This document shows, one piece after another, positions 3,926 to 29,640 of a stretch of 64,000 nt of DNA (positions are counted from its first letter, which is position 1; the number at the start of each line of letters is the position of its first letter). The position numbers and the translations under genes were made by a program. Source of the stretch: Planctomycetota bacterium (GTDB lineage Bacteria; Planctomycetota; Phycisphaerae; WQYP01); NCBI GenBank assembly GCA_021831565.1, contig JAKBMM010000002.1, positions 39,440 through 103,439 of the forward strand, read 5' to 3'. The notes below the pieces were generated by a model, which searched no databases, had not been told where the DNA came from, and was given only the letters and a program-made list of their open reading frames with translations.

Positions 3926-3954
3926 CTACGAATGCCACCTTTTCCTTTCCCATT

Positions 3955-9722: not shown

Positions 9723-9726
9723 GAAC

Positions 9727-11408: not shown

Positions 11409-11451
11409 GGTCGTCTGCTCCGATGATGTTCCGCCGCTTGATAAAAACCAT

Positions 11452-11491
11452 AAAAAAACCCTGCGAGGTTCGCTCGCAGGGTCTTGTTTTC
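11452..11491 (-). terminator. Bidirectional intrinsic terminator (stem CCCTGCGAG / CTCGCAGGG, loop GTTCG, flanked by A7 and T-rich tracts)
   Basis: 9-bp GC-rich stem at 11459..11481. The minus-strand reading has a TTTTTTT run after the hairpin, downstream of the cyclodeaminase gene. Confidence 0.55.
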
Positions 11492-11643
11492 AAACAAAAT
11501 TGCGCACCCTAGGAGCGATTCCCGATGGCGATCGGGATAAGCACCAGATCCGGAAGGTTCAGCCGTGTGGCATGTTGCGTCATGAAAGAACCCAACCTCG
11601 TTTCCACATAAAACATTAAATTTATTGCAGGCGAAATGGAAAG

Positions 11644-12285
11644 TCAAGCGATCAGCCGCTGGAATATGTCCCGCCATAACGTGTCGGCGGCCAGGCGCTG
11701 CGCTGCGGATTCCCGCGCCATGAGCCGGGCTTGTGCCTGGTCGTCCAACAGCTCCAGGTTTACCCGCACGTTCAACTGGCAAGCTTCCACCGCCGCGCGC
11801 GCCAGGCCGGCGGCGACGCCCAGATCGGAAAGAAGCGGGGGGTTGGTTTTGTCCACCAGCCCGCGGCAGATTTCCAGAACTTGCAGAGCCAAAACGCCAA
11901 CTGTTTGCGGAATGAGGATCGCTGCCCGCAGCGCCGGAGCGAAATCCGCCGCCAGGCGTTTTTCCGGGGGCAACTTAAGCAGTGGATGGAGCGTTTCGTA
12001 AGCGGCCTGGTCTTCTTCCATGAGTTCTTCCAGCAGGGCCATCGCTTTGCCGAGGCGGGCGGAATAATCGCGCAATTCCGGTTCCACGGCGGCAAAACGC
12101 CGCTTGCCAATGGTGTACGCCACGGCCATCTGCGCTTGTGCGGCGGCGAGCGCCCCGGTCAAGGCGGCCAGCGAGCCGCCGCCGGGGGTGGGGGTTTTCG
12201 CCGCCAGAAGCTGGAGAAACGCATGAATGGTCTGGTCCGTCAGTGGGACGCGGGAGGCCGGTTCGGAAGTTGCGATCTTCTGCAC
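11644..12285 (-). CDS. Formimidoyltetrahydrofolate cyclodeaminase / methenyl-THF cyclohydrolase family protein
   Basis: 213 aa. FLQLLAAKTPTPGGGSLAALTGALAAAQAQMAVAYT is typical of the FtcD/FchA cyclodeaminase domain. GTG start with AGGTGA RBS. Confidence 0.65.
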   Translation of the reverse strand: MQKIATSEPASRVPLTDQTIHAFLQLLAAKTPTPGGGSLAALTGALAAAQAQMAVAYTIGKRRFAAVEPELRDYSARLGKAMALLEELMEEDQAAYETLHPLLKLPPEKRLAADFAPALRAAILIPQTVGVLALQVLEICRGLVDKTNPPLLSDLGVAAGLARAAVEACQLNVRVNLELLDDQAQARLMARESAAQRLAADTLWRDIFQRLIA

Positions 12286-15879: not shown

Positions 15880-16194
15880 ATGGACGCGGCACCGGTCCAA
15901 CTGCACAGCCCTAACGAGATTGCCCGCCAACTGGCGCAGCACGTCCGCACCGAACGTCTCCGCCGCCAATGGAAACAGGAGACGCTGGCCAGGCGTTCGG
16001 GCGTGTCGGTGGCAACCATTCGCCGGTACGAACGTACCGGCCACACGTCGCTTGTGAACCTGCTGAAGCTCTGCCACGCGTTGGGCCGGCTGGATGAGTT
16101 CGCCGGCTTGCTCCAACCGCCACCCGCCACGTCGCTGGCCCAACTCGAATCCCGTGCCACCAAGGTCCGGGGGCGCAAACGAGGTGTGCGATGA
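15880..16194 (+). CDS. hipB: HipB-like HTH (XRE-family) antitoxin
   Basis: HTH segment ETLARRSGVSVATIRRYE. Stop overlaps the hipA start (ATGA). Confidence 0.7.
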   Translation: MDAAPVQLHSPNEIARQLAQHVRTERLRRQWKQETLARRSGVSVATIRRYERTGHTSLVNLLKLCHALGRLDEFAGLLQPPPATSLAQLESRATKVRGRKRGVR

Positions 16195-17441
16195 GGCAAC
16201 TGACGGTCAAACTGCAACGCCGGCCAGGCGACGCTCTGACGGTCGGCACGCTGGCAGAGCATGATCGACACACATACTTCGAGTACGACCCCACATTTCT
16301 CAACACCGGCTTTGAGCTCTCGCCCTTCAAGCTGCCCGCCCGGCCCGGCTTGATCGAACATACCGACCGCGCGTTCGGTCCGCTGCCCGGCGTGTTCGAC
16401 GACTCCCTGCCCGACGGTTGGGGTCTGCTATTGATGGATCGTCACTTCCGCCGCCAGGGTGTCGACCCCATGACGTTGTCCCCGCTCGATCGGCTCGCCC
16501 ACCTCGGCGCCCGCACCATGGGCGCTCTGGTCTACCATCCGCCGTCCCGCCAACTGCCCGAGCGCGACGAGCAACTGATCAATCTCTACGATCTTGGCCG
16601 CAATGCCGAGGATGTGCTCGAAGGCGACGCCGCCGAGGTGCTGCCCGAACTGATGCGGGCTGGCGGGTCGCCAGGCGGCGCCCGCCCCAAGGTACTCGTG
16701 GGCGTCCAGGGCGACCGCATCATCTCGGGCGCAGAGGATCTGCCCGAGAGATTCCTTGGTGGCGGGGGCGAGCATTGGATCGTCAAGTTCGCCGCCAAGG
16801 CGGACGCTCCCGCGGCCGGTCCCGTCGAATACGCGTATAGCCTGATGGCCCGGGCCGCCGGGGCGGACATGCCGCCGACTCGCCTATTCGAGGTCAGGCG
16901 CGGCCGCAGTGTCCGGCGGTACTTTGGCGTCAAACGGTTCGACCGCGCCGCTGAAAACCGGCGCGTTCACATGCACACCTTCGCCAACCTGGTGCACGTG
17001 AACTTCCGCATCCCCGCGACCGACTACGCTGATCTGTTGAAGGTGACGCGGGCGCTGACACGCAACCATGCCGACCTGCTGCGCCTGTTTCGGCTGATGC
17101 TGTTCAACATCGCCGCCCACAACCGCGACGATCACGCCAAGAACTTCGCCTTTACGCTCGACGATCAGACCGGCGAATGGTCGCTCGCCCCCGCCTACGA
17201 CCTGACTTACTCGCCCGGCCCCGGTGGCGAGCACACCACCACCATCCTCGGCGAGGGCCGCCAGCCAACACGCGGCCATTGCTTGAAGCTGGCCGATCAG
17301 TTCGGACTCAAACCCGGCGAAACTCGTCCCATCATCGACCAGGTCAACACCGCCATCAGCCACTGGCGCCGGTTCGCCGAGCAGGCGGGCTGCGCGAAGA
17401 AGATGGTTGTCGCGATCGGCAAGGCAATCGCCGCAATCTAA
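16191..17441 (+). CDS. hipA: HipA-family serine/threonine kinase toxin
   Basis: HipA N- and C-terminal domains. GGARPK ATP-binding motif (SPGGARPKVLV) and catalytic HNRDDHAKNFAF loop. Confidence 0.85.
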   Translation: MRQLTVKLQRRPGDALTVGTLAEHDRHTYFEYDPTFLNTGFELSPFKLPARPGLIEHTDRAFGPLPGVFDDSLPDGWGLLLMDRHFRRQGVDPMTLSPLDRLAHLGARTMGALVYHPPSRQLPERDEQLINLYDLGRNAEDVLEGDAAEVLPELMRAGGSPGGARPKVLVGVQGDRIISGAEDLPERFLGGGGEHWIVKFAAKADAPAAGPVEYAYSLMARAAGADMPPTRLFEVRRGRSVRRYFGVKRFDRAAENRRVHMHTFANLVHVNFRIPATDYADLLKVTRALTRNHADLLRLFRLMLFNIAAHNRDDHAKNFAFTLDDQTGEWSLAPAYDLTYSPGPGGEHTTTILGEGRQPTRGHCLKLADQFGLKPGETRPIIDQVNTAISHWRRFAEQAGCAKKMVVAIGKAIAAI

Positions 17442-17528: not shown

Positions 17529-17720
17529 TCACATGCCGGCGTTCATAGGTGTCCAGGATACTGTGGTACACGTGGTATCTGGGATTTTAAACGCGTAGGA
17601 ATATCTTTCGACTTGCTTGGACTGTTCGGCAGCGTAAATTGTTCGCGATACAGAGAGGCTGTGGTCGTGCTCGGCTACAGCGGCCAACCCCGTCTCCAAT
17701 TTCTGAAGATCAGCGTCCAT
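17529..17720 (-). CDS. Small hypothetical protein (63 aa) with strong RBS, downstream of the 329-aa islet gene
   Basis: AGGAGA RBS 6 nt upstream of ATG. Low GC like the islet; co-directional with the 329-aa gene, 77 nt after its stop. Confidence 0.45.
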   Translation of the reverse strand: MDADLQKLETGLAAVAEHDHSLSVSRTIYAAEQSKQVERYSYAFKIPDTTCTTVSWTPMNAGM

Positions 17721-17797
17721 CTGATTTCTCCTTCGGTAGCGAAAGTGGTTCGCTCGAATCCGATAACAAATCGATTTTCCGCCTCATTTCTCAGTGC

Positions 17798-18787
17798 CTA
17801 CCACTTCGCCTCACGGAGTTTGGAAGCAATTTCCTTGACGTTCGATGGGTCGATATTGGTTTTGGGGATTACCTCCCGCAGGTCGTGGAAAAGGGGACCC
17901 TGGATTGCATAAGGCGAGTCCTTTCTGTACTCCGTTTGCTCGGGGACTCCACAGAAGAAGCGATGGCCAGTTGAGACCTCCCATCCAAGGTCTTTCTTGG
18001 CCGCGTTTATTATGCCGATTATTTTGCTGTCGTATTCGGTTGTTTCGCGCCCGTCGACCAGCGTCTTGGTGAGGCGATCATTGACATATTCCGCGTCATA
18101 AATTGAGTCAACTGCCCAGATGCACGGCACATTTTTTTGTGCATATATTCCTAGAAATTTGTGTTTTCTATAGCCGCGATCTTGCGCATGGAAATAGACG
18201 CCGAATTGCTGGTTAATTTTTACCGTTTCGCTGCACGGAACGATTCGGAGGAGGAATTTCGATTCATCGAACAGCCCCGTGTCACTGCAATAGTCTATAT
18301 AATCTTCCACTAACGCAAGCATCTGCGGCTCGTGTTCCTTGAACATCGACTTAATTTCGTGGCAAATATCCTCGTAGGTGATGTTGCGAAAAACGAGGCT
18401 GGGAACTTGTTTTGCGATTTTGCCCCCCTCTATGGCGGATAACTGTTGTCGTTGTCGGGTTAGCAGGAGAAGTATTTTCTGGGACTCATTTGAAAAGCTA
18501 GTTGCATGCCGGGAGAGTTGGTCTAGGTTGACACCACTGTTGACCTTCGATTCCACAAGAATCTTGAAGCTCCGTTGGATTATGGCGCCATCAGGCACCG
18601 ATTGTTTGTTGCGCGGCTGCTGGTTGACTTCGATTCCCACAACTATTTCCTCCCCGCAAAGCTTGGTTAGCAGATTCGACAGGTGCTGCGGGGAATAATC
18701 GTATATGCGAGCGAGGAGTTGGAGCGTGTTATTTGTGACAGTATTCTCTTGGCCTGAATATCGCGGAAAATAATGGATTTTAGACAC
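17798..18787 (-). CDS. Hypothetical protein (329 aa) in a low-GC islet, with an N-terminal PD-(D/E)xK-like motif (VPDGAII...ILVESKV)
   Basis: Long ATG-initiated ORF with codon usage clearly different from its surroundings. No family recognised beyond the nuclease-like PD...ESK spacing. Confidence 0.6.
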   Translation of the reverse strand: MSKIHYFPRYSGQENTVTNNTLQLLARIYDYSPQHLSNLLTKLCGEEIVVGIEVNQQPRNKQSVPDGAIIQRSFKILVESKVNSGVNLDQLSRHATSFSNESQKILLLLTRQRQQLSAIEGGKIAKQVPSLVFRNITYEDICHEIKSMFKEHEPQMLALVEDYIDYCSDTGLFDESKFLLRIVPCSETVKINQQFGVYFHAQDRGYRKHKFLGIYAQKNVPCIWAVDSIYDAEYVNDRLTKTLVDGRETTEYDSKIIGIINAAKKDLGWEVSTGHRFFCGVPEQTEYRKDSPYAIQGPLFHDLREVIPKTNIDPSNVKEIASKLREAKW

Positions 18788-19280
18788 GTGTGGCTCCTTT
18801 CGCGCTCCCCGTTAAGACGATGTGACTGGGTGCATTGCGGGGACGGCATGCACCTTCACGGGTTATTCTGATGATGGCACCATCATATTTCACTTGCCCC
18901 AAATGCGACTCTAACTGGGATCCCTATTGCCCGCAAGCTTTATGCGCTAATGTTCTGTTAAACCGGCTCCCATCATTTCCGCCAGCGCCTGCGGCGTGGC
19001 GACTTTTTCTCGTCCATCAGCAGCGTGTTTTTATCTGTTGGAGTGTACCCGGTACGGTGAAACCGGAATTTGACCCAACCGCATATAAAACAAGCACTTA
19101 CGGTTTTTTATGCGTAGAACTTCGGATTAAGTTAACGCTTATGGTGAGGACGCCCCGCACTCCCAGGGGCGTCCGAAAAATTACCGCGCCCGTCGCACCG
19201 CGGCGAACCCCGGATAGGCAAGCGGGCTTCGCCCCCCGCGCTTTGGCAAACGCATGGATATAACGTCATTGGCGCCGCAA

Positions 19281-19398: not shown

Positions 19399-20262
19399 CT
19401 ACCGTTCGTCCGAAGGTACGTCAATTTTCTCCCGATTTACCCCGGCGGCGGGCGACCGGGAAGGATCGGGATTCCGCCGGCCGTCGATCCGGCCGATCAG
19501 CCGCAACAGACCGTCGAGGATGGTCAGGGGATGCGGCGGGCAGCCGGGAACGAAAAGATCAACGGGCACAATGGAATCGGCGCCATGGTGGACCTGGGGA
19601 TGATCGCGGTACGGTCCGCCGGAAATGGCGCACGCGCCGATGGCGATGACTATTTTCGGTCCGGGCACGGCATCATAGGTTTGTACAAGGGCGGATTTCA
19701 TGTTCCGGGTAACCGGGCCGGTGATCAACAGACCGTCGGCATGGCGGGGCGAGGCGACAAAATCAATTCCGAAACGTCCCAGATCCCAGCCAATGGTGGT
19801 AAGCACATTGACATCGGCCTCGCAGGCATTGCAGCCGCCGGCCGAGACCACGCGCAATTTCAGCGAGCGGCCCAGGAGTTTGCGGAGTTTATCGTCCAGG
19901 GCCGCGGCGAGCGCCGGCTCGCCGTCGGGGCCTACCAGCAAGTCCGCGCGCCGCCGAACCGCCAGGCGATAATCACGCGAATATTGAATCGCGCCCGTCG
20001 GGCAGGCTTCGGCGCAATCGACGCAGAACAGGCAGCGGCCCAGATCCAGTTCGATGCGGCCGGCGGCGATGGTGATGGCCCGCGTGGGACAGGCCTGGGC
20101 GCACAGGTCGCATGAATCGGGGCACCGGGCGGCATCGAATACGGGCCGGGCACGGAAATGCGGCGCCAGCGCCGGCGGAGCGCCGTCGGGATAGGCCATG
20201 GTCTGATGGCCCTGTTGGAATCGGGCTTTGACAATATCGAACATAAAACGTTCCTTCACCAA
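19399..20262 (-). CDS. Fused 2x[4Fe-4S] ferredoxin (NuoI/HycF-like) + NuoB/HycG-like small subunit of a complex-I / group-4-hydrogenase-like module
   Basis: N-terminal CPDSCDLCAQACP and CLFCVDCAEACP. NuoB-like part has GGCNACE (hydrogenase-type CxxC), IGACAISGGPY and PGCPP proximal-cluster ligands. Confidence 0.8.
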   Translation of the reverse strand: MVKERFMFDIVKARFQQGHQTMAYPDGAPPALAPHFRARPVFDAARCPDSCDLCAQACPTRAITIAAGRIELDLGRCLFCVDCAEACPTGAIQYSRDYRLAVRRRADLLVGPDGEPALAAALDDKLRKLLGRSLKLRVVSAGGCNACEADVNVLTTIGWDLGRFGIDFVASPRHADGLLITGPVTRNMKSALVQTYDAVPGPKIVIAIGACAISGGPYRDHPQVHHGADSIVPVDLFVPGCPPHPLTILDGLLRLIGRIDGRRNPDPSRSPAAGVNREKIDVPSDER

Positions 20263-20268: not shown

Positions 20269-21786
20269 TTATAGATCGTGACCGCAGTAAGAAAGACTAA
20301 AACTCTTATTGCAGAGCGGGAAATCGGAAATTTGCCCGCCGCGCATCGCCAGGGCCAGCCCCATCCAGTTATGGAACGACGGATCAACCACTTTATAACG
20401 CTCGAAGCGGCCGGCGGCGTCGGTCAACGCCAGATGGCATATTTCGCCGCGCCACCCTTCCACCAATGCTACGGCCAGATGATCGGGCGCCAAATTTCCC
20501 ACCGGGGAGCTTATGGTTCCGGGCGGGAGGGATCGAAGCTGTGTCCGGACAAAGTCCAGGGATCGCTGAATTTCCAACCAGCGGACATAAGCGCGGGCGA
20601 AGACATCGCCGCCGTCCCAGGAAGAAACGGGGATATGTATAAACCGGAATAAGCCGGAGGGATGGTCCTGCCGGGCGTCGCGGGTAAGTCCGCAGGCGCG
20701 GGCCACCGGTCCGACCATGCCCAGTTCAACGACCGCGCGGCGCGTCACCGGGCCGATGCCCTCGAAGCGGGCCATCACCGAGGACGAATTCCAGAGCAAT
20801 TCGACGGCCTGGCGGGTCTGCCGGCCGCAAATATCCAGTTTCGCCAGCAGATCGTTCACGGTACAAGTGGCCGGATCAAAACGCACGCCACCCGGTCGAA
20901 TCAGTCCGCGTCCGAACCGGCTGCCGCAAAGAGCGGCCGTCATGTTCAGGAATTCACCGCGCAGGCGTCCGCAATAAGAGGCGGTGGGAAGAAAGCCCAC
21001 GTCGCCGCTGAGCGCCCCCAGGTCTCCCACGTGATTGGCCAACCTTTCCAGTTCCAGGGCGATGCCGCGAATGCTCTGCGCCCGCGGCGACTTCTGTTTG
21101 CGGGCCAACGCTTCGAGCACCTGGCAGTAAGCGGTGGCGTGTCCGATGGTGGTGTCGCCGGCGAGCGTTTCGGCGTAATGGATGGTGCGATGATTCGGAC
21201 CGCCGAGCAGTGCTTGCTCCACTCCTCGATGCTGGTATCCCAGCGCCATCTCCAGGTGAAACACAACTTCTCCGTGGCACTGGAAGCGGAAATGTCCCGG
21301 CTCAATGACGCCCGCGTGGACCGGTCCCACGGCCACCTCGTGCACTTCCTCCCCCCGCACCTGGTAGAAATCCATCACTCCCGGCGGCGCGACGCGATCG
21401 TTCCCGGGCCGGCCCGATGGAAACAATGGCGGATGAAAACGGAGCGGTTTGAGCCAGGGATGTCCGACGATATCCAAACCACACTGTTCGGCGATTTCCC
21501 GTTCAAAGAGATGTACCTGCGGACACCGGGGCGTTAAAGAAGGGTAGTGCCGGCCCGCCAGCGTGGAAGCGACCCGGAGAATGGATTGGGTATCGTCCGC
21601 CAGAACCACATACAGGCGCAGGCGATCCGGTGCTTCGAGCGAACCAAACAGGCTTGCCACCCGCCGGCCCGTGCGTACCGCATCCAGAATGACTTGCTGG
21701 AAGTTGTCCAGGGCCAGGTCGGGAATCAAACGACGGCTGATGGCGCGTCCGGCGCCGAGCAGGGGTAAAGAGTCGGCCTGATTCAT
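20269..21786 (-). CDS. Fused NuoC-like + NuoD/[NiFe]-large-subunit-like protein lacking all Ni-Fe-ligating cysteines (Ehr-type)
   Basis: NuoC motif FEREIAEQCGLDIVGHP; NuoD-like GPVHAGVIEPGHFRF...HRGVEQ. No CxxC anywhere; the C-terminus has DPSFHNW where hydrogenases have DPCxxC. Confidence 0.8.
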   Translation of the reverse strand: MNQADSLPLLGAGRAISRRLIPDLALDNFQQVILDAVRTGRRVASLFGSLEAPDRLRLYVVLADDTQSILRVASTLAGRHYPSLTPRCPQVHLFEREIAEQCGLDIVGHPWLKPLRFHPPLFPSGRPGNDRVAPPGVMDFYQVRGEEVHEVAVGPVHAGVIEPGHFRFQCHGEVVFHLEMALGYQHRGVEQALLGGPNHRTIHYAETLAGDTTIGHATAYCQVLEALARKQKSPRAQSIRGIALELERLANHVGDLGALSGDVGFLPTASYCGRLRGEFLNMTAALCGSRFGRGLIRPGGVRFDPATCTVNDLLAKLDICGRQTRQAVELLWNSSSVMARFEGIGPVTRRAVVELGMVGPVARACGLTRDARQDHPSGLFRFIHIPVSSWDGGDVFARAYVRWLEIQRSLDFVRTQLRSLPPGTISSPVGNLAPDHLAVALVEGWRGEICHLALTDAAGRFERYKVVDPSFHNWMGLALAMRGGQISDFPLCNKSFSLSYCGHDL

Positions 21787-23216
21787 GGCTTGGCTCCCAG
21801 ATATCGGCTGGCCTGGTGCAAAAGGTCCCGCAGCGGCGGCGGCAGATACAGCCCCAGCAACAATACCATCAGCAGAGCACCCAGCGCCGGCAGACCACTC
21901 AGCAGGCCATCGCGGTAATTGTTCCGCGCGGCGGCTACGGGCGCCCGGCCCAGCACGGCGGCGAGCACGGTTCGCCCCATTCCCAGGAAAATCACCAGCA
22001 GCAGAAACAGAAACGCCGCGCCGATCAGGAAATGCCCGGCGGCAAAGGCGCCGTTAAGAATCATGAACTCACTGATAAACGGGCCGAACGGAGGCGATCC
22101 GGTGATGGCCAGAAAACCCAGCATAAACACCGTGCCCGAGAGAGGCAGCCGTCGCATGGCGCCGTGCACCTGCGGTATGGTTTTGCCGCCGTAGGCCCGG
22201 TCGATGTTGCCGACGGAAAGAAACAGCGATCCCTTGGTCAGGCCGTTGTTGATCACGTGCAGCATGGCGCCCAGCAGAGCGATACCGCCGATTCCCAGTC
22301 CCAGCGCAAGAATTCCCATGTGTTCCACACTGGAATAGGCGAGCATCCGCTTGAGGTCCTTCTGGCCGATCATAAATATCGCCGCGAAAAGCATGGATAA
22401 AAGCCCCAGAAATATCAGGAGCCTGGAGGCATAAGCGCCATCGCCGGCGGCATACAGGATGTGCTCGGATCGCACCACCATAAGAAAAGCGCTGCTGATG
22501 AGCGCTCCGGAAAACATGGCCGAAACCGGAGCCGGGCTTTCGCCATGGGCGTCCGGCAGCCAGGAGTGCATCGGGGCCAGGCCCATTTTGGTTCCATAGC
22601 CGACCAGCAGCAGGACAAATCCGGCCTGAAGCCAGACCTTGTTGAGCCGGGGCGCCTGGCGAAGCAGGTCGATGATTTTCAGGGAAGGCGTCATTCCCCG
22701 GCTCACGGCGGAGTAAGCCACGAAAAATGATCCGAGCAAGGCCAGAGCGATGCCCACGGAGCAGATCAGGAGATATTTCCAGGTGGCTTCGATGGACTGC
22801 GGCGTGCGGTTGAAATATATCAAAGGCGCGGAGCTAAGGGTGGTGGCTTCCATGGCCACCCACATCAGGCCGAGGTTGTCCGTGCAGATGACCAGGGTCA
22901 TGGCGCCCAGAAACAGCAGGAAGCACGAGCAGAAGACGCGATTGGCATGATCGGCGCGGGAGCACAGGTATCCCGCCAAATAAAAAGAACACAGCAGGAA
23001 CAACACGCTCACCAGAAGCAGCACCACGCGCCCGGGCGGATCGATCTCCAGCCAGCCCCCGCGCGCGCCGCCGCCATATCCGGCCAGAATGGCCAGGACC
23101 AGGCCCAGGTGGGCGATCGCCACGGGCGGCAGGAGCCAGGGCCGCCGGCGGTTGGAGGGCAGCAGCGCCGCCAGGGCGGCGGCGAGAGGACATAGAATAA
23201 TAAGTGCAATGTACAT
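21783..23216 (-). CDS. NuoN/NuoM/MrpD-like antiporter-type membrane subunit (HyfF-like)
   Basis: 477 aa, 14 TM. Conserved WLPDAHGESPAPVSA and LAYSSVEHMG motifs. Start overlaps the previous gene by 4 nt. Confidence 0.8.
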   Translation of the reverse strand: MYIALIILCPLAAALAALLPSNRRRPWLLPPVAIAHLGLVLAILAGYGGGARGGWLEIDPPGRVVLLLVSVLFLLCSFYLAGYLCSRADHANRVFCSCFLLFLGAMTLVICTDNLGLMWVAMEATTLSSAPLIYFNRTPQSIEATWKYLLICSVGIALALLGSFFVAYSAVSRGMTPSLKIIDLLRQAPRLNKVWLQAGFVLLLVGYGTKMGLAPMHSWLPDAHGESPAPVSAMFSGALISSAFLMVVRSEHILYAAGDGAYASRLLIFLGLLSMLFAAIFMIGQKDLKRMLAYSSVEHMGILALGLGIGGIALLGAMLHVINNGLTKGSLFLSVGNIDRAYGGKTIPQVHGAMRRLPLSGTVFMLGFLAITGSPPFGPFISEFMILNGAFAAGHFLIGAAFLFLLLVIFLGMGRTVLAAVLGRAPVAAARNNYRDGLLSGLPALGALLMVLLLGLYLPPPLRDLLHQASRYLGAKP

Positions 23217-23223: not shown

Positions 23224-23865
23224 TTATCCCTTCAAGGAAGAAAGCCGCCGGGTGTCCAGCGAAGCGAACTCGCGATTGATGTGATGCATGATGATGCTGA
23301 TGACAAAAATGCCGACAAACAGGTCCAGCAGTACGCCCAGCTCCACCAGGGACGGGATCGCGCCGAGCAGAAGCAGACCGAAAACGAAAATGCCGTTTTC
23401 CAGCAGCAGAAAACCGATGGTTTGCGTAAGGGCCTTCACCCGCGTGGTCAAAAGCAGAAAGCCGGTGAAAAGCATGGAGATGGAAGTGGGAATCACCAAC
23501 AGACCCAGAGGGCTTGCGGAAGGCGTGATCCGTCCGGCCAGCACCAGGGCGGCGCCGGTGGCGGCGGCGCCCAGAAGAATGCAGGGCATGAATCCGATGA
23601 TCGGTTCCACCTCCCGTTTGACGTGGGCGTCGCGCAGGGCCTTGAGCAGCATATTGGGAATCACGACGCCTTTGAGCACAACCGTCATCAAGGCCATGAA
23701 CAGCGGTACGAATTGCGCCTCCCGGAGCACCAGGGGAGGCAGCAATCCCAGCAAGATGCCCTGGAGCGCCGCGGCGTGTATCAAAGCCTTCATGCGGCCG
23801 GCGCCCAGGACAAACAGGTTGATCAGAATCACCAGTACAAAAATGGCGTTGAGGGTCATCATCAT
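23224..23865 (-). CDS. HyfE-like small membrane subunit of the complex
   Basis: 213 aa, about 6 TM; size and hydropathy are those of hydrogenase-4 component E. 7-nt gap to the neighbouring genes. Confidence 0.6.
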   Translation of the reverse strand: MMMTLNAIFVLVILINLFVLGAGRMKALIHAAALQGILLGLLPPLVLREAQFVPLFMALMTVVLKGVVIPNMLLKALRDAHVKREVEPIIGFMPCILLGAAATGAALVLAGRITPSASPLGLLVIPTSISMLFTGFLLLTTRVKALTQTIGFLLLENGIFVFGLLLLGAIPSLVELGVLLDLFVGIFVISIIMHHINREFASLDTRRLSSLKG

Positions 23866-23871: not shown

Positions 23872-24810
23872 TCACCGCAGCAGCAAAAGAAATCCAAAAC
23901 CGTTCAAAAGACAGGCGGCAACCAGAAGCGTCGGCACCAGTCGAAGCTGCAGCCGGGCCATGATGGATTCCACCACGCCAATCACACCCGCCACCGCCAG
24001 CAGGCCGGGTATGGTCATCGCCCAGTTTTCCCAGATCCATCCCTGATTCAGCGGGAGCAGCACATGGAGCAGCAGGGCGCCGAGGACCAGAAGTTTGACG
24101 GCTGATCCGTAAATCTGCGCCGCCAGCAGGGGGCCGCTGTTGTCCAGCACCAGCACCTCATGTATCATTGTCAATTCGAGATGTGTATTTGGATCATCAA
24201 TGGGCAGACGGGAGGTCTCCGCCAGGAGCACCACGAACAATCCGAACGCCGTGAGCACCAGCGCCGCCGCGGCCGTGGAATCAATAGCGACATGTGTCGC
24301 GGGCGCCAGCATGGTGCTCAGGCTCAAGGTTCCGGAGAGTTTCACCAGCACCAGCAGCGCCAGAAACAACGCCGGTTCCGAAAAGGAGGCGAAGGTGAGT
24401 TCCCGGGCGGCCCCCATCCCCTCAAACGATGAGCCGGTATCCAGCGCCGCCAGAATGGTGAAAAATCTCCCCAGCGCCAGCAGGTAAGCAAACAGGATCA
24501 GATCGCCGGTGAAATGCACGGGAGCCGCGGTCGGTCCCAGCGGAACAAGCAACCCCGCCAGCAAGACGCTGGCCAGGGAAATCAGCGGCGCGGCCGAAAA
24601 CACCCAGGTTGTGGTGGAACTCAGCACGACGCCTTTGCGCATGAGCCGAAGCAGATCGTAGTAAGTCTGGAAAAGCGGCGGGCCGACGCGCCCGGCGAAC
24701 CAGGCCTTGGTTTTGTTGATAACGCCCGGCAGCAATGGCGGCAGAAGCACCAGCAGCAGGATCTGAAAAGCAATCGAAATAAGCGTATTCATAAAGTCAA
24801 TAGCTCGCAA
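23872..24810 (-). CDS. NuoH/HycD/HyfC-like membrane subunit
   Basis: 312 aa with 8 TM. Conserved IDDPNTHLELTMIHEVLVLDNSGP-type loop (the E/D-rich quinone-channel loop region). Confidence 0.75.
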   Translation of the reverse strand: MRAIDFMNTLISIAFQILLLVLLPPLLPGVINKTKAWFAGRVGPPLFQTYYDLLRLMRKGVVLSSTTTWVFSAAPLISLASVLLAGLLVPLGPTAAPVHFTGDLILFAYLLALGRFFTILAALDTGSSFEGMGAARELTFASFSEPALFLALLVLVKLSGTLSLSTMLAPATHVAIDSTAAAALVLTAFGLFVVLLAETSRLPIDDPNTHLELTMIHEVLVLDNSGPLLAAQIYGSAVKLLVLGALLLHVLLPLNQGWIWENWAMTIPGLLAVAGVIGVVESIMARLQLRLVPTLLVAACLLNGFGFLLLLR

Positions 24811-24828: not shown

Positions 24829-26796
24829 TCAAACCAGCAACAGCACCAGAACAATCAGCAAGACGTAAAGCAGATACAACTGCACCGTACCGCTCTGAAA
24901 AATCCTGGCGGATTTAAGGGTATTCCCGGCCTTGTGCAACGCCGGTTGCACAACGCTCTCCAGCAGCGGGTCCGGGGTATGAGAGGCATAGTTCGATGGT
25001 TGGGGAAAAACGCCCTGAATCCGCGGTTGTCGCCGGGTGGACCACACAAGCCAGCGCAGCATTTCTGTGAGCGCTTGCGTGAGCGATGAGCCGGTGTACT
25101 GCATGCGCTGGTTGGGAGAGACGTAACCACAACCCCATGTCCGGCCGGGGTTACGGATCCGGGCGTGCCGCCAGGGTATGGCCAGCACCCCGATCAGTCC
25201 GCCCGCGAAGAACAGGGCCAGGGCCACAGCGGTAAAACAGCCCAGGGGAATAATGGTTTCCAGGGGGATGGGCGCGTTCCAAGGCGTCCAGGCTCGAATC
25301 GCATGATCCAGAAGTCCTGTGAACAACTGCGGAAAAATGCCGACGATCGCACAGCCGGCGGCCAGCAGCAGCATGGGCGCCAGCATCATGGACCCCGGCT
25401 CATGGGCGTTGGCGGCCGCCGCGGTTCGCGGTTGGCCGGCGAATGATGTCGCCGTGAACTTGATAAACGTCGTCATGGCCAAAGCCCCGACCATGGCCAA
25501 CAGGGGAACGGCCAGTGCGGCCCAGCCGGCGGGTGTTCCCCCCTGGAGCGTTTTGAATAATCCCAGGTAAATGAACAGTTCGCTGACAAAGCCATTCCAT
25601 GGCGGCAGAGCCGAGATGGAGGCCGCTCCAACCAGCATCAGCCAGAAAAGCGTCGGCATTCGTCGGGCCAGGCCGCCCAAAGCCTCCAGATCGCGGGCGC
25701 CCGTGCCGTGTATGATTCCGCCGGCGCCCATGAACAGGAGCGGTTTGAACAGGCTATGATTGAACATGTGAAGCAGCGATCCCCCCAGTCCCAGCGCCAC
25801 CCAAAGCGGGTGTTGCAGGGATAGTCCCAACACGGCCAGCCCCAGACCCGTCATGAGAATGCCGATATTTTCAATGCTGCTGTAGGCCAGAAGCCGCTTG
25901 CAGTCCCTCTGCGCACAGGCCCATACAATTCCCAGGAAAGCCGAGAGCATTCCACAACTGAGCAGCACCGCTCCCCACCAGATCGGTGGATGACCCGCGA
26001 TGGCGGCCACCCGCACGATGCCGTAAACGCCCATGTTCAGCAGCACACCGGAAAACAGCGCCGATACGTGGCTAGGGGCATTGGCGTGCGCCCCCGGCAG
26101 CCAGACATGCAGCGGGACCAGACCGGCCTTGCAGCCAAATCCCACCAGCCCCAGAATAAACAGAGCCGCCAGCATCGCTCTCGGCAGGTGCGTCAGGCCG
26201 GTCGGCCAGAGATTTAGCGAACCGGACCCGACTCGGAGCAATACGAAAAAGGCGATCAGACAGAGTGTGGCAATATGGGTGGCGATGAGGTAGACCCATC
26301 CCGCCTGTTGCACTTGCGGCCGACGGTCCTCGGTTATCAGAAGAAAGTAGCCCGCCATCGCCATGATTTCCCAGGCGATGAGGAATTCCACGCTGTTGGC
26401 GGCGAGAACCACCAGGATCATTCCGGCGGTCGTGATTCCCCAGAATAAACGGAGTTTGCGTCCATCCGCGGGATGCCGCCGCTGCGGCCAATAGCCCAGG
26501 CCATAGACGGACCCCAGGGCGGAAATCAGAAAAATGGGAAGTAAAAACCAGGCGCTTAAGTCATCCAGTTGCAAGGCGGGCTTGCCGATCGGAAAGCGGT
26601 ATGTCGTGGCCCAATGCAACGGAGCGGCCGCCGCTAGATCATGGCGCAACAGTACCGCGATGCCGAGGGCGCTGGCCAGCACATGGATGGCCATCGATAG
26701 TACCGGCCCGCGCGCGCTGCGCCGGCCGGACACCAGCGAAGGCAAGCCGCTTCCAGCGATCAATAGAGCGGCGAGAATCAGAAGAAACATGGTCAT
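24829..26796 (-). CDS. NuoL/MrpA/HyfB-like antiporter-type subunit, paralog 1
   Basis: Start taken at MTMFLLI (ATG 26796; GGAG RBS 9 nt upstream). Conserved HVWLPGAHANAPSHVSALFSG and KRLLAYSSIENIG motifs. Confidence 0.8.
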   Translation of the reverse strand: MTMFLLILAALLIAGSGLPSLVSGRRSARGPVLSMAIHVLASALGIAVLLRHDLAAAAPLHWATTYRFPIGKPALQLDDLSAWFLLPIFLISALGSVYGLGYWPQRRHPADGRKLRLFWGITTAGMILVVLAANSVEFLIAWEIMAMAGYFLLITEDRRPQVQQAGWVYLIATHIATLCLIAFFVLLRVGSGSLNLWPTGLTHLPRAMLAALFILGLVGFGCKAGLVPLHVWLPGAHANAPSHVSALFSGVLLNMGVYGIVRVAAIAGHPPIWWGAVLLSCGMLSAFLGIVWACAQRDCKRLLAYSSIENIGILMTGLGLAVLGLSLQHPLWVALGLGGSLLHMFNHSLFKPLLFMGAGGIIHGTGARDLEALGGLARRMPTLFWLMLVGAASISALPPWNGFVSELFIYLGLFKTLQGGTPAGWAALAVPLLAMVGALAMTTFIKFTATSFAGQPRTAAAANAHEPGSMMLAPMLLLAAGCAIVGIFPQLFTGLLDHAIRAWTPWNAPIPLETIIPLGCFTAVALALFFAGGLIGVLAIPWRHARIRNPGRTWGCGYVSPNQRMQYTGSSLTQALTEMLRWLVWSTRRQPRIQGVFPQPSNYASHTPDPLLESVVQPALHKAGNTLKSARIFQSGTVQLYLLYVLLIVLVLLLV

Positions 26797-26840
26797 CAAC
26801 AACGACTCCAGACGACTCCATCCCGGCACGCCGGGATCGG

Positions 26841-28823
26841 TTAAAACAGGATCTTCCAGAGCGCTCCCAACGGGAGCGTAATCAGAAGCAGAAAAAGTAA
26901 CATCAAAAGCATATAAAAAAGATAGCTCTGAACGTTGCCCCGCTGGAACACGCGGCCATTGGCCAGCACGGATCGCAAACGCCGCCACCCGGGTTCCAGA
27001 ACGTTTTTCAGGACCGGATCATCCACATGCGAATGGAATTGACCGGGACCGGCAAAGAGGCCCGATAGCCGCGGTTCGCGACGGCGCATGCGCAGCAGCG
27101 GCCGCAATGTACCCAGCAGCATTTGTGCCAGGGAGGAGGCGGTGTACTGCATACGGCTGGAAGACCCGGCGTAACCGCAATTCCACGTCGGTTGGGTCCG
27201 CGCCTGGCGCGCCAGGAACCGCCGGAGAAGGAAAGCGACCAGGAGGACCGCGGCCAGAGACAGATTCATTATGGTCAAGGCGGTTAGCGGAGTCAGCGCA
27301 ACCAGCGCCGGCAGTCCCCGGTGGGCCCAGGCGCTGGTGGTTCGGTTCAACGGCGTTGCCACCAGCGTGGGCGCCATTCCGATCAACAGACATCCGCCGG
27401 CGAGAATCATCATCGGCAGCCAAAACGCCGGGCCGGCTTCGCGCACCCGGCGCAGCTTGGTGCGGGCTGTTCCAAGAAAGACCGCGCCGCAGACCTTGGT
27501 GAAGCACGCCGCCGCCAGCGCCCCGACCATGGCCAGCACTCCGGCAGCCAGAGCCAGTATCGGCAGCACGGTCATTGTTCGCAGAAGCCCCACGTAAATG
27601 AAAAGTTCACTGACAAATCCATTCAGCGGCGGCAGGCCGCAGATGGCGATGGCTCCGAGCAAAAACAGGTTGGAAGTAAGCGGCATGGATTGGGCCAGCC
27701 CGCCGAGCCGATCGATTTTCCGCGTTCCGGCGGCATGGATGACACTGCCCGCGGAAAGGAACAAAAGCGACTTGAACAATCCGTGATTCCAGACGTGCAG
27801 AAGACATCCGGCCATTCCCAGGATGATCCATATCGGCTGATGTTTTGCCTCGCCGATCAGCGCCAGTCCCAGTCCCAACAGGATGATTCCGATGTTTTCC
27901 ACACTGTGATACGCCAGGAGTTTTTTCAGATCGTGCTGACCGATCGCCCATAACACACCGAGAAATGCGCTAAGTGCGCCGAGCGTCATAACCAGAATGC
28001 CCCAGCCGAGCGGTCTGGCCGGAAGCAGCGGCAACACGCGCAGCAGCCCGAAAATGCCCATCTTAATTGTGGTTCCCGATAACGTTGCGGATACATGACT
28101 CGGAGCGTTCGCGTGGGCTTCGGGCAGCCAGAAATGCAGCGGCACCATGCCGGCCTTAACGCCGAAGGCCCCCAGGGCCAGTAGAAATAACGCCGTCTGC
28201 AATCCCATACCGGCCTGTTCCGGCGAAAGCGGACGCAGAAGAAATGATCCCGACGCCATACGCAGCAAGGCAAAAAAGGCGAACAGCAGCAAGGTGCTTA
28301 TGTGTGCCGCCGCCAGATAAACCCAGGCGGCCTGGCGGGAGTCGGGCTTGAAGTCTTCCGTGGCTATAAGGAAAAACGTGCTGATCGCCATGAGTTCCCA
28401 CGCAAACAGAAAGCAAATGCCGTTGTTGCTCAACGTAATCATCGCCATGCTGGAAATGAGTATTCCGTACCAGAATCGCAGTTTCCGGCCGGTCCGGGGA
28501 TGATGACTTTGTTTCCAGTAACCGATGCCATAGAGCGAACATAGGCCGCCGATAAGAAAAATGGGGACCAGAAAAAATGCCGCCAGCGGATCAAGCCGGA
28601 GGTTGGTGGTCATGACCGGCGCCGGTCCGGGACCGGCCAGAGATTCAACCGGGGCGCCAAGCAGTATGGCCATAGCGGCCGTGAGGCCGCACAGCGCGGC
28701 CAGGACGGCCACCAACACCGAAAGCCAATGTCCCCAATTGCGGCGGCGATTGCCCACCATACCTATCAGGCCGCTGGCGGCAAAGCCGCCCGCGCCCAGC
28801 AATGTCATGGTCAGCCACATCAC
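26841..28823 (-). CDS. NuoL/MrpA/HyfB-like antiporter-type subunit, paralog 2
   Basis: 660 aa. HFWLPEAHANAPSHVSATLSG and KKLLAYHSVENIG. First gene of the structural part of the operon. Confidence 0.8.
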   Translation of the reverse strand: MMWLTMTLLGAGGFAASGLIGMVGNRRRNWGHWLSVLVAVLAALCGLTAAMAILLGAPVESLAGPGPAPVMTTNLRLDPLAAFFLVPIFLIGGLCSLYGIGYWKQSHHPRTGRKLRFWYGILISSMAMITLSNNGICFLFAWELMAISTFFLIATEDFKPDSRQAAWVYLAAAHISTLLLFAFFALLRMASGSFLLRPLSPEQAGMGLQTALFLLALGAFGVKAGMVPLHFWLPEAHANAPSHVSATLSGTTIKMGIFGLLRVLPLLPARPLGWGILVMTLGALSAFLGVLWAIGQHDLKKLLAYHSVENIGIILLGLGLALIGEAKHQPIWIILGMAGCLLHVWNHGLFKSLLFLSAGSVIHAAGTRKIDRLGGLAQSMPLTSNLFLLGAIAICGLPPLNGFVSELFIYVGLLRTMTVLPILALAAGVLAMVGALAAACFTKVCGAVFLGTARTKLRRVREAGPAFWLPMMILAGGCLLIGMAPTLVATPLNRTTSAWAHRGLPALVALTPLTALTIMNLSLAAVLLVAFLLRRFLARQARTQPTWNCGYAGSSSRMQYTASSLAQMLLGTLRPLLRMRRREPRLSGLFAGPGQFHSHVDDPVLKNVLEPGWRRLRSVLANGRVFQRGNVQSYLFYMLLMLLFLLLITLPLGALWKILF

Positions 28824-29548
28824 TCGCCTTGCCCCGGTGAGTTGCCATGGGCCGCCGCAGGACCTTGCCCTGTCGTCAAAATACCGGACTCCGCCCGTCG
28901 CAGGGATTCCAGAACCTCTTCCCGGGCGGCCTGCTCCAGCACGACCTTCTTGAATCCCGGATCACGCAGGACAAAACCCAGCCGCGAAAGCAATTGCAGA
29001 TGCGCCCGCACAGTGGGACTGATAAGCGTAAAGAGAGTACTTACCGGCTGCCCGTCGAGTGCCCCAAAGTCCACGGGCTTTTCCAGGAAACACAGCACGA
29101 TCATGGGACCGGACAGGTGCAACACGATGGGATTGCGGACATGCGGAATCGCGATTCCTTCTCCAATGCCGGTCGAGCCGAGAGCTTCCCGGGCCAGCAA
29201 CACCTGATAGAGAAATTCGCGGTCCACTTCCTCCGGCAGCCGCATGATTTCCACCACGCTGCGCAGCACGGAACTTTTATCGACGCCGCTGATCCGGTAG
29301 TAGATGCCGCCATCGCGCAGCGCATCGGTTAGCGATGGCGCCGGCGTTTCACCTCCCTCCGGTTCAAGGAAGATTTCCGGGGAAACATGAATTTTTCGTG
29401 AGGTGGACCACTCAAGCAGCTCAGCCCGGTTGAATCGGTATTGCTCGTTAACCTGGTAGGCGGGAATGATCCCCTGCTTAATCCAGCGGTACACGCTTTT
29501 TTCCGATACATTAAGTAGTCGAGCGGCATCGCGGACGGTGAGTTTCAT
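28820..29548 (-). CDS. HTH (excisionase/MerR-like HTH_17) + PTS EIIA(Ntr/Fru type-2) two-domain protein, translationally coupled to the complex operon
   Basis: MKLTVRDAARLLNVSEKSVYRWIKQG HTH; EIIA-2 domain with phosphorylatable His in GEGIAIPHVRNP. Its stop overlaps the next start (ATGA). ATG 29548 with AAGGG RBS. Confidence 0.75.
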   Translation of the reverse strand: MKLTVRDAARLLNVSEKSVYRWIKQGIIPAYQVNEQYRFNRAELLEWSTSRKIHVSPEIFLEPEGGETPAPSLTDALRDGGIYYRISGVDKSSVLRSVVEIMRLPEEVDREFLYQVLLAREALGSTGIGEGIAIPHVRNPIVLHLSGPMIVLCFLEKPVDFGALDGQPVSTLFTLISPTVRAHLQLLSRLGFVLRDPGFKKVVLEQAAREEVLESLRRAESGILTTGQGPAAAHGNSPGQGE

Positions 29549-29588: not shown

Positions 29589-29617
29589 ACTATAAAACAA
29601 ATGTCCTAAAAAGTCAA
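29589..29617 (-). promoter_or_regulatory. Near-consensus sigma70 promoter TTGACT-N17-TATAGT driving the HTH-EIIA/complex operon
   Basis: On the minus strand: TTGACT (plus coordinates 29612..29617), 17-nt spacer, TATAGT (29589..29594), about 40 nt upstream of ATG 29548. Confidence 0.5.
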
Positions 29618-29640
29618 TCGGATGGCAAAAAAAAGGACAT

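Follow-up and report, generated by a model that had tools for sequence, protein, structure and literature searches.

An Ehr-type gene cluster in a planctomycete genome with a hydrogenase-related large subunit lacking all four Ni-Fe cysteine ligands

The window, that is, the whole 64-kb stretch of planctomycete DNA analysed here, contains an eight-gene cluster on the minus strand, whose structural genes we name after the subunits of Ehr complexes (EhrA, EhrB, EhrC, EhrD, EhrL and EhrS; PMC7894505 and the supplement of PMC10284858). Upstream (5′) of the first gene lies a candidate sigma-70-like promoter identified by pattern match only (29589–29617, minus strand; TTGACT-17-TATAGT, 10 of 12 consensus matches), flanked or overlapped by ATGTCC (29635–29640) and GGACAT (29601–29606); the hexamer [TG]GACAT is ~7-fold enriched upstream of homologues of that first gene (52 loci). 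The gene itself (28820–29548) encodes a protein of 242 amino acids (the start was taken from homologues) that joins an HTH_17 (excisionase/MerR-like) domain (Pfam PF12728, 1.4e-16) to a PTS EIIA-2 (EIIA-Ntr-like) domain (PF00359, 1.9e-23), with an NCBIfam PtsN-like match below cutoff. Its phosphorylatable histidine sits in the motif GIAIPH, which is kept in 119 of 120 homologues, and the gene stands directly upstream of the cassette in 45 of 53 loci (~85%). It is the first gene of the cassette, its stop overlaps the start of the EhrA-1 gene, and it presumably encodes a regulator (hereafter the HTH-EIIA protein).

The membrane part of the predicted complex begins with two HyfB/NuoL-like antiporter-like subunits, EhrA-1 (26841–28823; 660 amino acids including a C-terminal extension; Pfam Proton_antipo_M, 1.2e-52; 543 bits against the NCBIfam model 'hydrogenase 4 subunit B', below its cutoff of 667), which retains the conserved motifs of TM5 (Glu), TM7 (Lys), TM8 (Lys) and TM12 (Glu), and EhrA-2 (24829–26796; 655 amino acids from the ATG at 26796; assigned by Pfam, NCBIfam and antiporter motifs). 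Tandem copies of EhrA are found in 19 of 58 loci and a single copy in the other 39. These genes are followed by EhrB (23872–24792; 306 amino acids; Pfam NADHdh, 3.5e-30), a NuoH/HycD-like membrane anchor with the conserved loop RLPIDDPNTHLELTMIHE; by EhrC (23224–23865; 213 amino acids), a HyfE-like membrane subunit that is conserved in 66 loci (NCBIfam 'hydrogenase 4 membrane subunit', 3.7e-19, below cutoff); and by EhrD (21783–23216; 477 amino acids), a HyfF/NuoN-like antiporter-like subunit (Pfam and NCBIfam; MbsH, 6U8Y_H, 7.2e-37) that has its charges in place (E123, the Lys of GYGTKMG, the Lys of HVINNGLTK and the Glu of SEFMI), so that antiporter charge motifs are present in all three antiporter-like subunits. 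The stop of the EhrD gene overlaps the start of the seventh gene, which encodes EhrL (20269–21786), by 4 nt.

Downstream of EhrL, the last gene (19399–20244; 281 amino acids; Pfam Oxidored_q6 and Fer4) encodes EhrS, a HycF–HycG fusion small subunit with a HycF/HyfH/NuoI-like 2×[4Fe-4S] ferredoxin domain (residues 1 to ~105) and a HycG/MbhJ/NuoB-like domain (~115–256); its matches in the PDB are MbhJ (1.7e-33), HycG (1.4e-32) and HycF (3.9e-16). Across 76 EhrS sequences, twelve cysteines that supply the ligands of three [4Fe-4S] clusters are kept. At the proximal cluster, EhrS has the four cysteines of hydrogenases (GGCNACE, GACA and GCPP, aligned with MbhJ and HycG) and reads C-N-A-C where PSST/Nqo6 have CC, so the tandem-cysteine N2 ligation of complex I is missing (for the significance of this difference, see PMC8165549). 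Together, these comparisons show three intact features: the predicted ligands of a three-cluster Fe–S wire, the loop of the NuoH-like subunit, and the transmembrane charges in the three antiporter-like subunits. Neither NuoA/J/K nor NuoE/F/G families were detected among the seven structural genes, which fall short of the complex I set of 11–14 subunits, and no hyp/HycI maturation genes were found within the window. The GC content of the cluster (0.58–0.64) matches that of the window (0.61), and we therefore reject recent horizontal acquisition in the host genome.

EhrL is encoded by an intact ATG-to-stop open reading frame of 505 amino acids; the first-pass annotation of this stretch had given no strand for it, and it lies on the minus strand. 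The NuoC–NuoD fusion recognized there is confirmed by a Complex1_30kDa domain at the N terminus (PF00329; 27 bits, cutoff 22.5) and a Complex1_49kDa large-subunit domain (PF00346; E = 4.6e-35). The closest solved relatives are, in order, HycE (7Z0S; 1.5e-46 by HMMER), MbhL (2.8e-34) and Nqo4 (1.8e-31). An AlphaFold2 model (42-sequence alignment; mean pLDDT 69) was used solely to confirm the fold, and its top Foldseek match is 7z0s_E; its pLDDT falls below 50 in the pocket loops (residues 124–185, 371–393 and 471–505), which makes the model unreliable there, so that no tunnel or cavity was seen. At the level of sequence, these rankings show EhrL to be a descendant of the Hyf/Hyc-like branch of group-4 [NiFe] hydrogenases.

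EhrL contains 12 cysteines, no two of them within 5 residues of each other, and hence, as previously claimed, no CxxC pair anywhere in its length. In the HMMER alignment with HycE (7Z0S), the hydrogenase motif DRVCGICGFAH falls opposite ETLAGDTTIGH (residues 206–216), so that A209 and T212 occupy both cysteine positions of the N-terminal RxCGxC, in agreement with its reported absence. The heptapeptide DPSFHNW (468–474) had been taken as the equivalent of the C-terminal DPCxxC. This was a misassignment: it aligns with AATYANW in HycE and RAPSFVNL in Nqo4 and matches a separate conserved motif ~30 residues upstream of the true counterpart. The latter is formed by the last nine residues of the protein (S497-L-S499-Y-C501-G502-H-D-L505), which align with D529-P-C531-Y-S-C534-T-D-R in HycE; the nearest genuine hydrogenases have LCYSCxD[RL] at this place. 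The second ligand pair thus corresponds to S499 and G502, with C501 falling between the two former ligand positions, and since neither is a cysteine, the conclusion that all four Ni-Fe ligands are absent holds despite the misplaced motif. EhrL accordingly has neither the L1 (RxCGxCxxxH) nor the L2 (CxxC) cysteines of group-4 [NiFe] hydrogenases. We exclude a frameshift or misassembly whose correction would restore the cysteines, because 24 examined contigs from independent assemblies carry exactly this protein and the C terminus (FPLCNKSF[NS]LSYCGHDL, then stop) is kept in the query and 80 relatives (81 sequences), with only slight variation at L491 and F496 (few, conservative substitutions).

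The four positions are substituted alike across the family, which supports the prediction that EhrL cannot ligate a [NiFe] centre, as the annotation had proposed for the module. In a set of 84 sequences of the wider family, made up of the query and 83 full-length representatives at 50% identity, cysteine is absent from all four ligand positions in 72, present at one in eight and present at all four in four; in a neighbour-joining tree (BLOSUM distances, no support values and therefore rough), the four-cysteine sequences sit close to basal cysteine-less ones. In place of the former Ni-Fe site there is a replacement signature, [A/S/C]-G-D-[T/S]...H plus L-S-Y-x-G-x-D-L.

The surroundings of this site have been kept to a large extent. 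Residues H157, E162, N251, H252, R363, E405 and R446 of EhrL are invariant in the family alignment and correspond, in order, to H188, E193, S283, H284, R395, E437 and R478 of HycE, the roles of which in the proton pathway have been described (PMC9474812). The alignment shows that the predicted glutamate and histidine of the β1–β2 loop and most 'canopy' proton-relay residues are intact and that the canopy aspartate itself (HycE D529), which is otherwise strictly conserved, is replaced, namely by Ser in EhrL and by Asn in most relatives. In complex I, the part played by Tyr87 and His38 of Nqo4 in the quinone site is well established. These two quinone ligands (T. thermophilus numbering; PMC9474812) align with G210 and I161 of EhrL and are thus missing. 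The earlier suggestion was a pocket for quinone or another substrate, as in complex I or Ehr. A quinone pocket of the complex I type is not supported; of the two systems named, Ehr is the one to which the domains, the cluster and published descriptions point (PMC7894505, PMC3569383, PMC10284858).

Species-representative genomes from Planctomycetota, Verrucomicrobiota, Binatia, Myxococcota, Desulfobacterota, Methylomirabilota and further groups, at least 80 in all, carry the cassette at 58–76% identity (61–66% for the copies in Desulfobacterota MAGs); the cultured Fontivita pretiosa has a 66% identical copy. The gene order is the same in 80 loci, and with at least 556 matches confirmed in species-representative genomes, Ehr complexes extend to hundreds of species. 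Identity maintained across phyla in this way indicates strong selection on the cassette. All-versus-all clustering of open reading frames found no conserved partner enzyme beside the cassette in the 80 loci, conservation being limited to the cluster genes. Other neighbours in these loci were sporadic, namely a response-regulator-like gene (in five) and a probable Rex-type repressor (in three).

Among characterized systems, Hyd-3/Hyf of E. coli formate hydrogenlyase (FHL; HycE/HyfG, group 4a; 7Z0S) provide the best solved homologue of EhrL, with which they share the NuoC–NuoD fusion, the β1–β2 loop EPGHFR, the canopy Arg and equivalents of the proton-pathway residues H284, E437 and R395; HyfB/C/E/F-like membrane subunits and the small-subunit CxxC are likewise common to both clusters. 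Unlike HycE, EhrL has its four NiFe cysteines replaced, Asp529 gives way to Ser or Asn, EhrL has no C-terminal extension for HycI cleavage, and the Ehr cluster has HycF and HycG fused and neither a HycB/FdhF partner nor hyp genes nearby. Complex I/NDH-1 (NuoCD, Nqo4/Nqo6) has in common with Ehr the loss of the NiFe ligands, a three-cluster terminal wire, a NuoH-like anchor and three antiporter-like subunits, and its ferredoxin-fed NDH-1 form is a functional analogue; however, the Ehr cluster lacks the Tyr87/His38 pair, tandem-cysteine N2 ligation, separate NuoA/J/K and NuoEFG, and EhrL is nearer to hydrogenases than to NuoD (1.5e-46 versus 1.8e-31). The Pyrococcus MBS/Mbx sulfane-sulfur reductase (6U8Y), which is also hydrogenase-derived and NiFe-less, uses a non-proton acceptor, and its MbsH is the top solved match of EhrD. 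In MBS, MbsL keeps two of the four NiFe cysteines and the proximal cluster has three cysteine ligands, leaving a catalytic Fe (PMC8165549). By contrast, EhrL keeps none of the four, all four proximal-cluster cysteines are conserved in EhrS, and the Mrp-type MbsA–G subunits are absent from the Ehr cluster, which sets it apart from MBS.

Ehr (energy-converting or Ech-hydrogenase-related) complexes were reportedly first identified in Geobacter and later named by Marreiros et al. 2013, who reportedly define the family by exactly such a loss of the NiFe cysteines. The present cluster has the subunit set and order of the published ehrA-A-B-C-D-L-S (GSU0739–45 in G. sulfurreducens, that is, EhrA-1/A-2/B/C/D/L/S; PMC7894505). 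Its large subunit is homologous to group-4 [NiFe] hydrogenases and NuoD, lacks the [NiFe] binding motifs through substitutions that are conserved in relatives, and is encoded together with EhrA-, EhrB-, EhrC-, EhrD- and EhrS-type subunits, and we predict, from published descriptions of named EhrL proteins (GSU0744 of G. sulfurreducens and Desru_3264 of D. ruminis), that it is the EhrL of an Ehr complex. Most EhrL proteins lack the NiFe cysteines, and four-cysteine relatives occur beside cysteine-less ones, as for D. ruminis EhrL (PMC3569383) and likewise in the family analysed here. We see no difference in kind between the published complexes and the planctomycete cluster: it is one more copy of a known kind, real but not new in kind. 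Neither a cassette headed by an HTH-EIIA gene, nor a HycF–HycG fusion in Ehr, nor the replacement signature was found in the literature searched, and the search for a link between Ehr and EIIA/PtsN, or for Ehr structures, found nothing; the only fresh lead is the conserved EIIA regulator.

We consider it reasonably probable that the cluster encodes an ion-coupled Ehr complex, controlled by the HTH-EIIA protein, that passes electrons from a low-potential carrier along an Fe–S wire to an acceptor other than protons. Electrons would enter from a soluble carrier at the ferredoxin-like domain of EhrS; the complex is self-contained and the cluster has no gene for a dedicated donor subunit, which makes ferredoxin the most likely donor. 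The Fe–S wire would then lead the electrons to a polar, proton-connected pocket in place of the Ni-Fe site, where a non-proton acceptor (most probably a membrane quinone) would be reduced, with coupling to H+ or Na+ translocation. The machine could also operate in reverse, and H2 would be neither made nor consumed. A PTS-Ntr-type phosphorelay probably sets expression through the HTH-EIIA protein. Several observations count against this scenario: the replaced canopy aspartate, the hydrogenase-style proximal CxxC of EhrS together with the missing complex I quinone ligands, and the status of Ehr in the literature, where its substrate is undemonstrated and its function called unknown (PMC10284858, PMC10432482, 10.1101/765248). 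A more specific version, which we put forward tentatively and regard as possible rather than probable, is a PTS-Ntr-controlled coupling site (ferredoxin:quinone or, driven by PMF, quinol:ferredoxin) with a new, metal-free, proton-connected pocket. If so, the respiratory chain of aerobic and facultative bacteria would be connected with the low-potential ferredoxin pool by a widely transferred cassette of eight genes, through a pocket that differs both from a hydrogenase site and from a quinone site of the complex I type.

Operation mainly in reverse, with PMF and quinol reducing ferredoxin (for example, for ferredoxin-dependent nitrogen assimilation), would account for a PTS-Ntr-type EIIA regulator with a conserved phospho-histidine at the head of 45 of 53 loci, but EIIA-Ntr proteins control many unrelated processes. 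The two to three antiporter-like subunits per cassette with their charges intact, the relatives in Methylomirabilota and Binatia MAGs and the reports of the Ehr family from aerobes, among them Nitrospira and ammonia-oxidising archaea (PMC10284858, PMC10432482), agree with this direction. Direction cannot be read from sequence, however, and no ferredoxin-dependent assimilatory gene is linked to the cassette in the window or the 80 loci, and we think such a role unlikely. Somewhat less likely still is a membrane module for a formate or other dehydrogenase encoded elsewhere, analogous to FHL with an output other than H2. The FHL large subunit is indeed the closest solved relative of EhrL, all Geobacter Ehr subunits are more abundant on formate (PMC7894505), and an FDH–Ehr pairing has been proposed for Margulisbacteria and Saganbacteria (PMC6349859); yet genes for a formate dehydrogenase or for HycB-like or NuoEFG-like proteins were neither found within the 64-kb window nor conserved beside the cassette in the 80 loci, and the HycF-like domain (~105 residues) lacks the C-terminal extension through which HycF contacts HycB in FHL (PMC9474812).

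A subfamily-specific metal or redox site made of C170, C492, C501 and H503 (with D211), which would replace Ni-Fe and perform new chemistry, was demoted to a minor rival that we hold to be improbable. Neither these residues nor H216 vary among the query and 80 relatives from many phyla, and C501 lies between the former C-terminal ligand positions; in the wider family, however, C170 (V/A/S), C492 (I/V/N), C501 (S/A) and H503 (N/F/V) vary independently while D211, S499 and G502 persist, so the cysteines do not form an obligatory set. We give least credence to the view that the gene is what remains of a hydrogenase in decay, or that the complex is an Mrp-like cation antiporter working independently of redox chemistry, its peripheral arm being vestigial. 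The loss of the catalytic metal ligands and the kinship of the antiporter-like subunits with those of Mrp speak for this view, but it is at odds with the 58–76% identity kept across phyla, more than 120 invariant EhrL positions in 42 sequences, conserved proton-relay residues and 12 conserved Fe–S cysteines, the lack of frameshifts in identical copies from many assemblies, and a cluster GC equal to that of the surrounding genome.

Ehr complexes have been proposed to be the 'missing link' that joins membrane hydrogenases to complex I, and we know of no substrate, structure or phenotype established for any of them. Ehr is also reported in nitrifiers (PMC10284858, PMC10432482) and Geobacter (PMC7894505). 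The comparative data sharpen the targets for experiments, in that the hydrogenase proton relay is mostly kept and the complex I quinone ligands are gone, and the usual company of the HTH-EIIA regulator points to PTS-Ntr control. The labels that annotation pipelines give to such proteins ('Ni,Fe-hydrogenase III large subunit' and 'NADH-quinone oxidoreductase subunit C') mislead metabolic reconstructions from metagenomes.

The stretch at 20269–21786 (minus strand) is a single intact open reading frame (ATG to stop, 505 amino acids), and its plus-strand reading contains many stops. Pfam places Complex1_49kDa (that is, the NuoD/large-subunit domain) on the protein strongly (E=4.6e-35) and Complex1_30kDa (NuoC-like) on residues 53–116 weakly yet above threshold; the protein, here EhrL, is therefore a NuoC–NuoD fusion of the HycE type. 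Among solved structures, HycE, the large subunit of E. coli formate hydrogenlyase (FHL), ranks first (7Z0S_E; E=1.5e-46), followed by MbhL (2.8e-34) and Nqo4 of Thermus complex I (1.8e-31). EhrL has 12 cysteines, no CxxC and no pair of cysteines five or fewer residues apart. As residue-level alignment sets E206-T-L-A-G-D-T-T-I-G-H216 opposite HycE 'DRVCGICGFAH', the N-terminal Ni-Fe ligands are replaced by A209 and T212. The alignment extends to the protein end, where 'KSFSL/SYCGHDL' and the stop lie opposite HycE 'GSLDP/CYSCTDR', and the nearest database sequences that are true hydrogenases terminate in '...NKSF[EN]LCYSCxD[RL]'; the C-terminal ligand positions are therefore S499 and G502. The first-pass annotation had correctly recognized a hydrogenase-like large subunit without the ligand cysteines, but had misplaced the C-terminal site in taking 'DPSFHNW' (468–474) for the counterpart of DPCxxC: this heptapeptide aligns with HycE 'AATYANW' and Nqo4 'RAPSFVNL' and is a separate conserved motif, with the real counterpart at the extreme C terminus. 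We take the HycE processing (cleavage) site to lie at the position matching the EhrL stop. On the alignment and the D529/C531 numbering of PMC9474812, the reading frame stops at the residue equivalent to that site. A frameshift is excluded, given that an identical protein is called on the 24 contigs read (independent assemblies) and the C-terminal stretch and stop are kept in all 81 sequences compared (the query plus 80 relatives). Close to the elements of the former active site, C170, C492, C501 and H503 are invariant in 81 close family members and vary independently among more distant Cys-less relatives.

Residue roles in the pocket were transferred from the FHL functional map of PMC9474812 through the EhrL–HycE alignment (the solved HycE chain runs 12 residues ahead of natural numbering, an offset checked on E193, S283/H284, R395, E437, R478 and D529), and the retained residues are also invariant in a 42-sequence family alignment. 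Retained are the β1–β2 loop residues H157 (HycE H188) and E162 (E193), the canopy position N251 (S283) and canopy arginine R446 (R478), and the proton-pathway residues H252 (H284), R363 (R395) and E405 (E437). Besides the four cysteines, EhrL has lost HycE D192 (I161) and the canopy Asp529, strictly conserved elsewhere but S497 in EhrL and Asn in 70 of 81 aligned sequences. It also differs from complex I, whose quinone ligands Y87 and H38 (Nqo4) face G210 and I161 and are thus missing. The pocket accordingly keeps most of its proton plumbing but is not a Ni-Fe site, nor is it a quinone site of the complex-I type.

EhrL is the penultimate gene of a tightly packed minus-strand cluster that comprises, in transcription order, an HTH_17 plus PTS_EIIA_2 protein (28820–29548), two HyfB/NuoL-like subunits (EhrA-1, 26841–28823; EhrA-2, 24829–26796), a NuoH/HycD-like subunit (EhrB, 23872–24792), a HyfE-like subunit (EhrC, 23224–23865), a HyfF/NuoN-like subunit (EhrD, 21783–23216), EhrL itself and the small subunit EhrS (19399–20244). 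EIIA overlaps EhrA-1, and EhrD overlaps EhrL, by 4 nt in each case; NCBIfam Hyf/Nuo equivalog matches of the cluster all fall under curated cutoffs. EhrS is a fusion: residues 1 to about 105, with two CxxCxxCxxxCP motifs, match HycF (3.9e-16), and residues ~115–256 match MbhJ (1.7e-33) and HycG (1.4e-32). FHL, MBH and complex I have the HycF/NuoI-like (2×[4Fe-4S]) and HycG/NuoB-like parts as separate proteins; every one of the 76 aligned relatives has them fused, and all 12 EhrS cysteines are conserved across the 76 sequences. Whereas complex I carries a 'CC' motif at the proximal cluster, EhrS has the hydrogenase-type 'GGCNACE'. The TM5 Glu, TM7 Lys, TM8 Lys and TM12 Glu are kept in all three antiporter-like subunits. 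The tandem HyfB-like paralogues (24829–28823, minus strand) bear C-terminal extensions with a conserved TWxCGY...RMQYTxSS segment, possibly the equivalent of the ND3 loop as described for HycC. Flanking genes are housekeeping (recN, leuA, accA, typA, leuC), the GC content of the cluster equals that of the window, and hyp, hycI, formate dehydrogenase, HycB-like and NuoEFG-like genes are absent from the whole 64 kb. Directly downstream, a low-GC island (17600–18800; 0.48–0.50 versus 0.61) holds an ORF of 329 amino acids (17798–18787, minus) with no Pfam match and a marginal PADLOC match to PDC-S26 (E=1e-3), adjoined by a HipA-family toxin kinase gene (16191–17441, plus); its appearance suggests a small insertion of foreign or defence type.

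The name Ehr and the 'missing link' concept reportedly originated with Marreiros et al. 2013. According to PMC3569383, the complexes were first recognized in Geobacter and occur in many microorganisms. The 'Ech-hydrogenase-related (Ehr) complex' of G. sulfurreducens (GSU0739-45) is listed with EhrA-1 (NuoL-like), EhrC (HyfE-like), EhrL and EhrS (PMC7894505), and a comammox supplement gives EhrA as NuoL-like, EhrB as NuoH-like, EhrC as HyfE-like and EhrD as HyfF-like, with EhrL and EhrS (PMC10284858); these descriptions match the present cluster exactly. As the Cys-less large subunit is the defining property of this family, which received its name in 2013 after being noticed in Geobacter several years earlier, this copy is a further member of an already known family. 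Papers on Ehr complexes state that their function is unknown and suggest that they translocate ions and interact with oxidoreductases or quinones (PMC6349859, PMC10284858, PMC10432482, 10.1101/765248).

The protein-database search with EhrL scored at least 8,000 candidates (all E<1e-10), the best 120 of which are 66–100% identical, mainly from Tepidisphaeraceae, and annotated as 'Ni,Fe-hydrogenase III large subunit' or 'NADH-quinone oxidoreductase subunit C'. Species-representative genomes yielded at least 556 confirmed stretches; the best 80 (58–95% identical) come from Planctomycetota, Verrucomicrobiota, Kiritimatiellia, Binatia, Myxococcota, Desulfobacterota, Zixibacteria, Methylomirabilota, Hydrogenedentota, Lentisphaerae, Acidobacteriota and others. 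As far as contigs extend, the cassette gene order recurs in all of these loci but one, with one HyfB-like copy in 39 of 58 loci and two in 19, and all-versus-all clustering of the flanking ORFs found no other conserved neighbour. The exception, a Methylococcaceae MAG (contig CADDYU010000122.1; locus coordinates 9422–11840), has a pair of homologues, of EhrL (68% identical) and of EhrS (70%), but in the 9.4 kb upstream unrelated genes (Ig/Kelch-repeat, GNAT-like) take the place of the Ehr membrane subunits; either a rearrangement or contig chimerism could account for this. Among 84 sequences (the query and 83 full-length sequences, each representing a 50%-identity cluster), 72 have no cysteine at the four ligand positions, eight have one (each time at position 209) and four have the complete set, reading 'ERxCGxC...H' and '...LCYSCxD[RL]'. 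A replacement signature is common to the Cys-less sequences: [A/S/C]-G-D-[T/S]-x-x-x-H plus L-S-Y-x-G-x-D-L. A rough neighbour-joining tree without support values sets this whole group of sequences apart from HycE and MbhL, with the four-Cys sequences adjoining basal Cys-less ones.

At the sequence level, hydrogenase ancestry, loss of the Ni-Fe ligands and intact ligands for a three-cluster wire are established, as are intact proton-relay and coupling residues and antiporter charges; the cassette is self-contained and under strong purifying selection. We consider it highly probable that it encodes an Ehr-type, non-hydrogenase, redox-coupled ion-translocating complex, and ferredoxin:quinone activity specifically a tentative assignment. 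The HycF/NuoI-like domain is the ferredoxin entry point in MBH, Ech and NDH-1, and because no donor subunit is encoded, the donor would most likely be ferredoxin or flavodoxin. The acceptor could not be H+. Polysulfide, as in the Pyrococcus sulfane-sulfur reductase MBS, is unlikely because the EhrS proximal cluster keeps four cysteines (proximal-cluster ligation being the criterion of PMC8165549). A membrane quinone is the most economical guess, since the presence of two to three antiporter modules points to a large driving force, aerobes are numerous among the carriers and most of the proton supply to the pocket is retained; against it, both the complex-I quinone ligands and N2-type ligation are missing. 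Reverse operation (that is, ferredoxin reduction driven by the PMF) is equally compatible with the sequence.

The comparative data narrow the role of Ehr somewhat and supply a regulatory lead, the HTH–EIIA gene. Its 242-amino-acid product fuses an excisionase/MerR-type HTH (HTH_17) to an EIIA-Ntr-like domain, and among the 53 loci with enough upstream sequence, the gene directly precedes the other cassette genes in 45, from many phyla. The top 120 database matches (about 241 amino acids, 71–83% identical) carry the phospho-His motif GIAIPH in all but one case (119/120), and the protein is at least as conserved as EhrL, the catalytic subunit. In the 200 bp upstream of the gene (52 loci), [TG]GACAT/ATGTC[AC] is about 7-fold enriched (1.0 per 200 bp versus 0.15 in random same-locus windows), with two or more copies in 15 of 52 loci (control mean, 0.7), frequently paired 10–11 bp apart. 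In the window, ATGTCC (29635–29640) lies upstream of the −35 element of a sigma-70-like promoter match (29617–29589, minus) and GGACAT (29601–29606) in the −35/−10 spacer; this pair is a candidate operator, the enrichment in part reflecting just the −35 consensus. These features suggest an autoregulated operon under PTS-Ntr control, and we found no paper linking Ehr to EIIA or PtsN in the searchable literature. Three loci (one at L061, a homologous locus, 3465–4178) have, some 0.6 kb beyond the downstream end of the cassette, a gene of ~237 amino acids that we take, by eye, to resemble a Rex-type redox-sensing repressor, and five loci have nearby what is presumably, by appearance, a response-regulator-like gene. 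At 41004–44428 (plus), 12 kb away from the cluster, a KdpD sensor kinase is paired with a KdpE-like response regulator; in E. coli, EIIA-Ntr is known to target KdpD, and the proximity to an EIIA-bearing cluster is probably coincidental.
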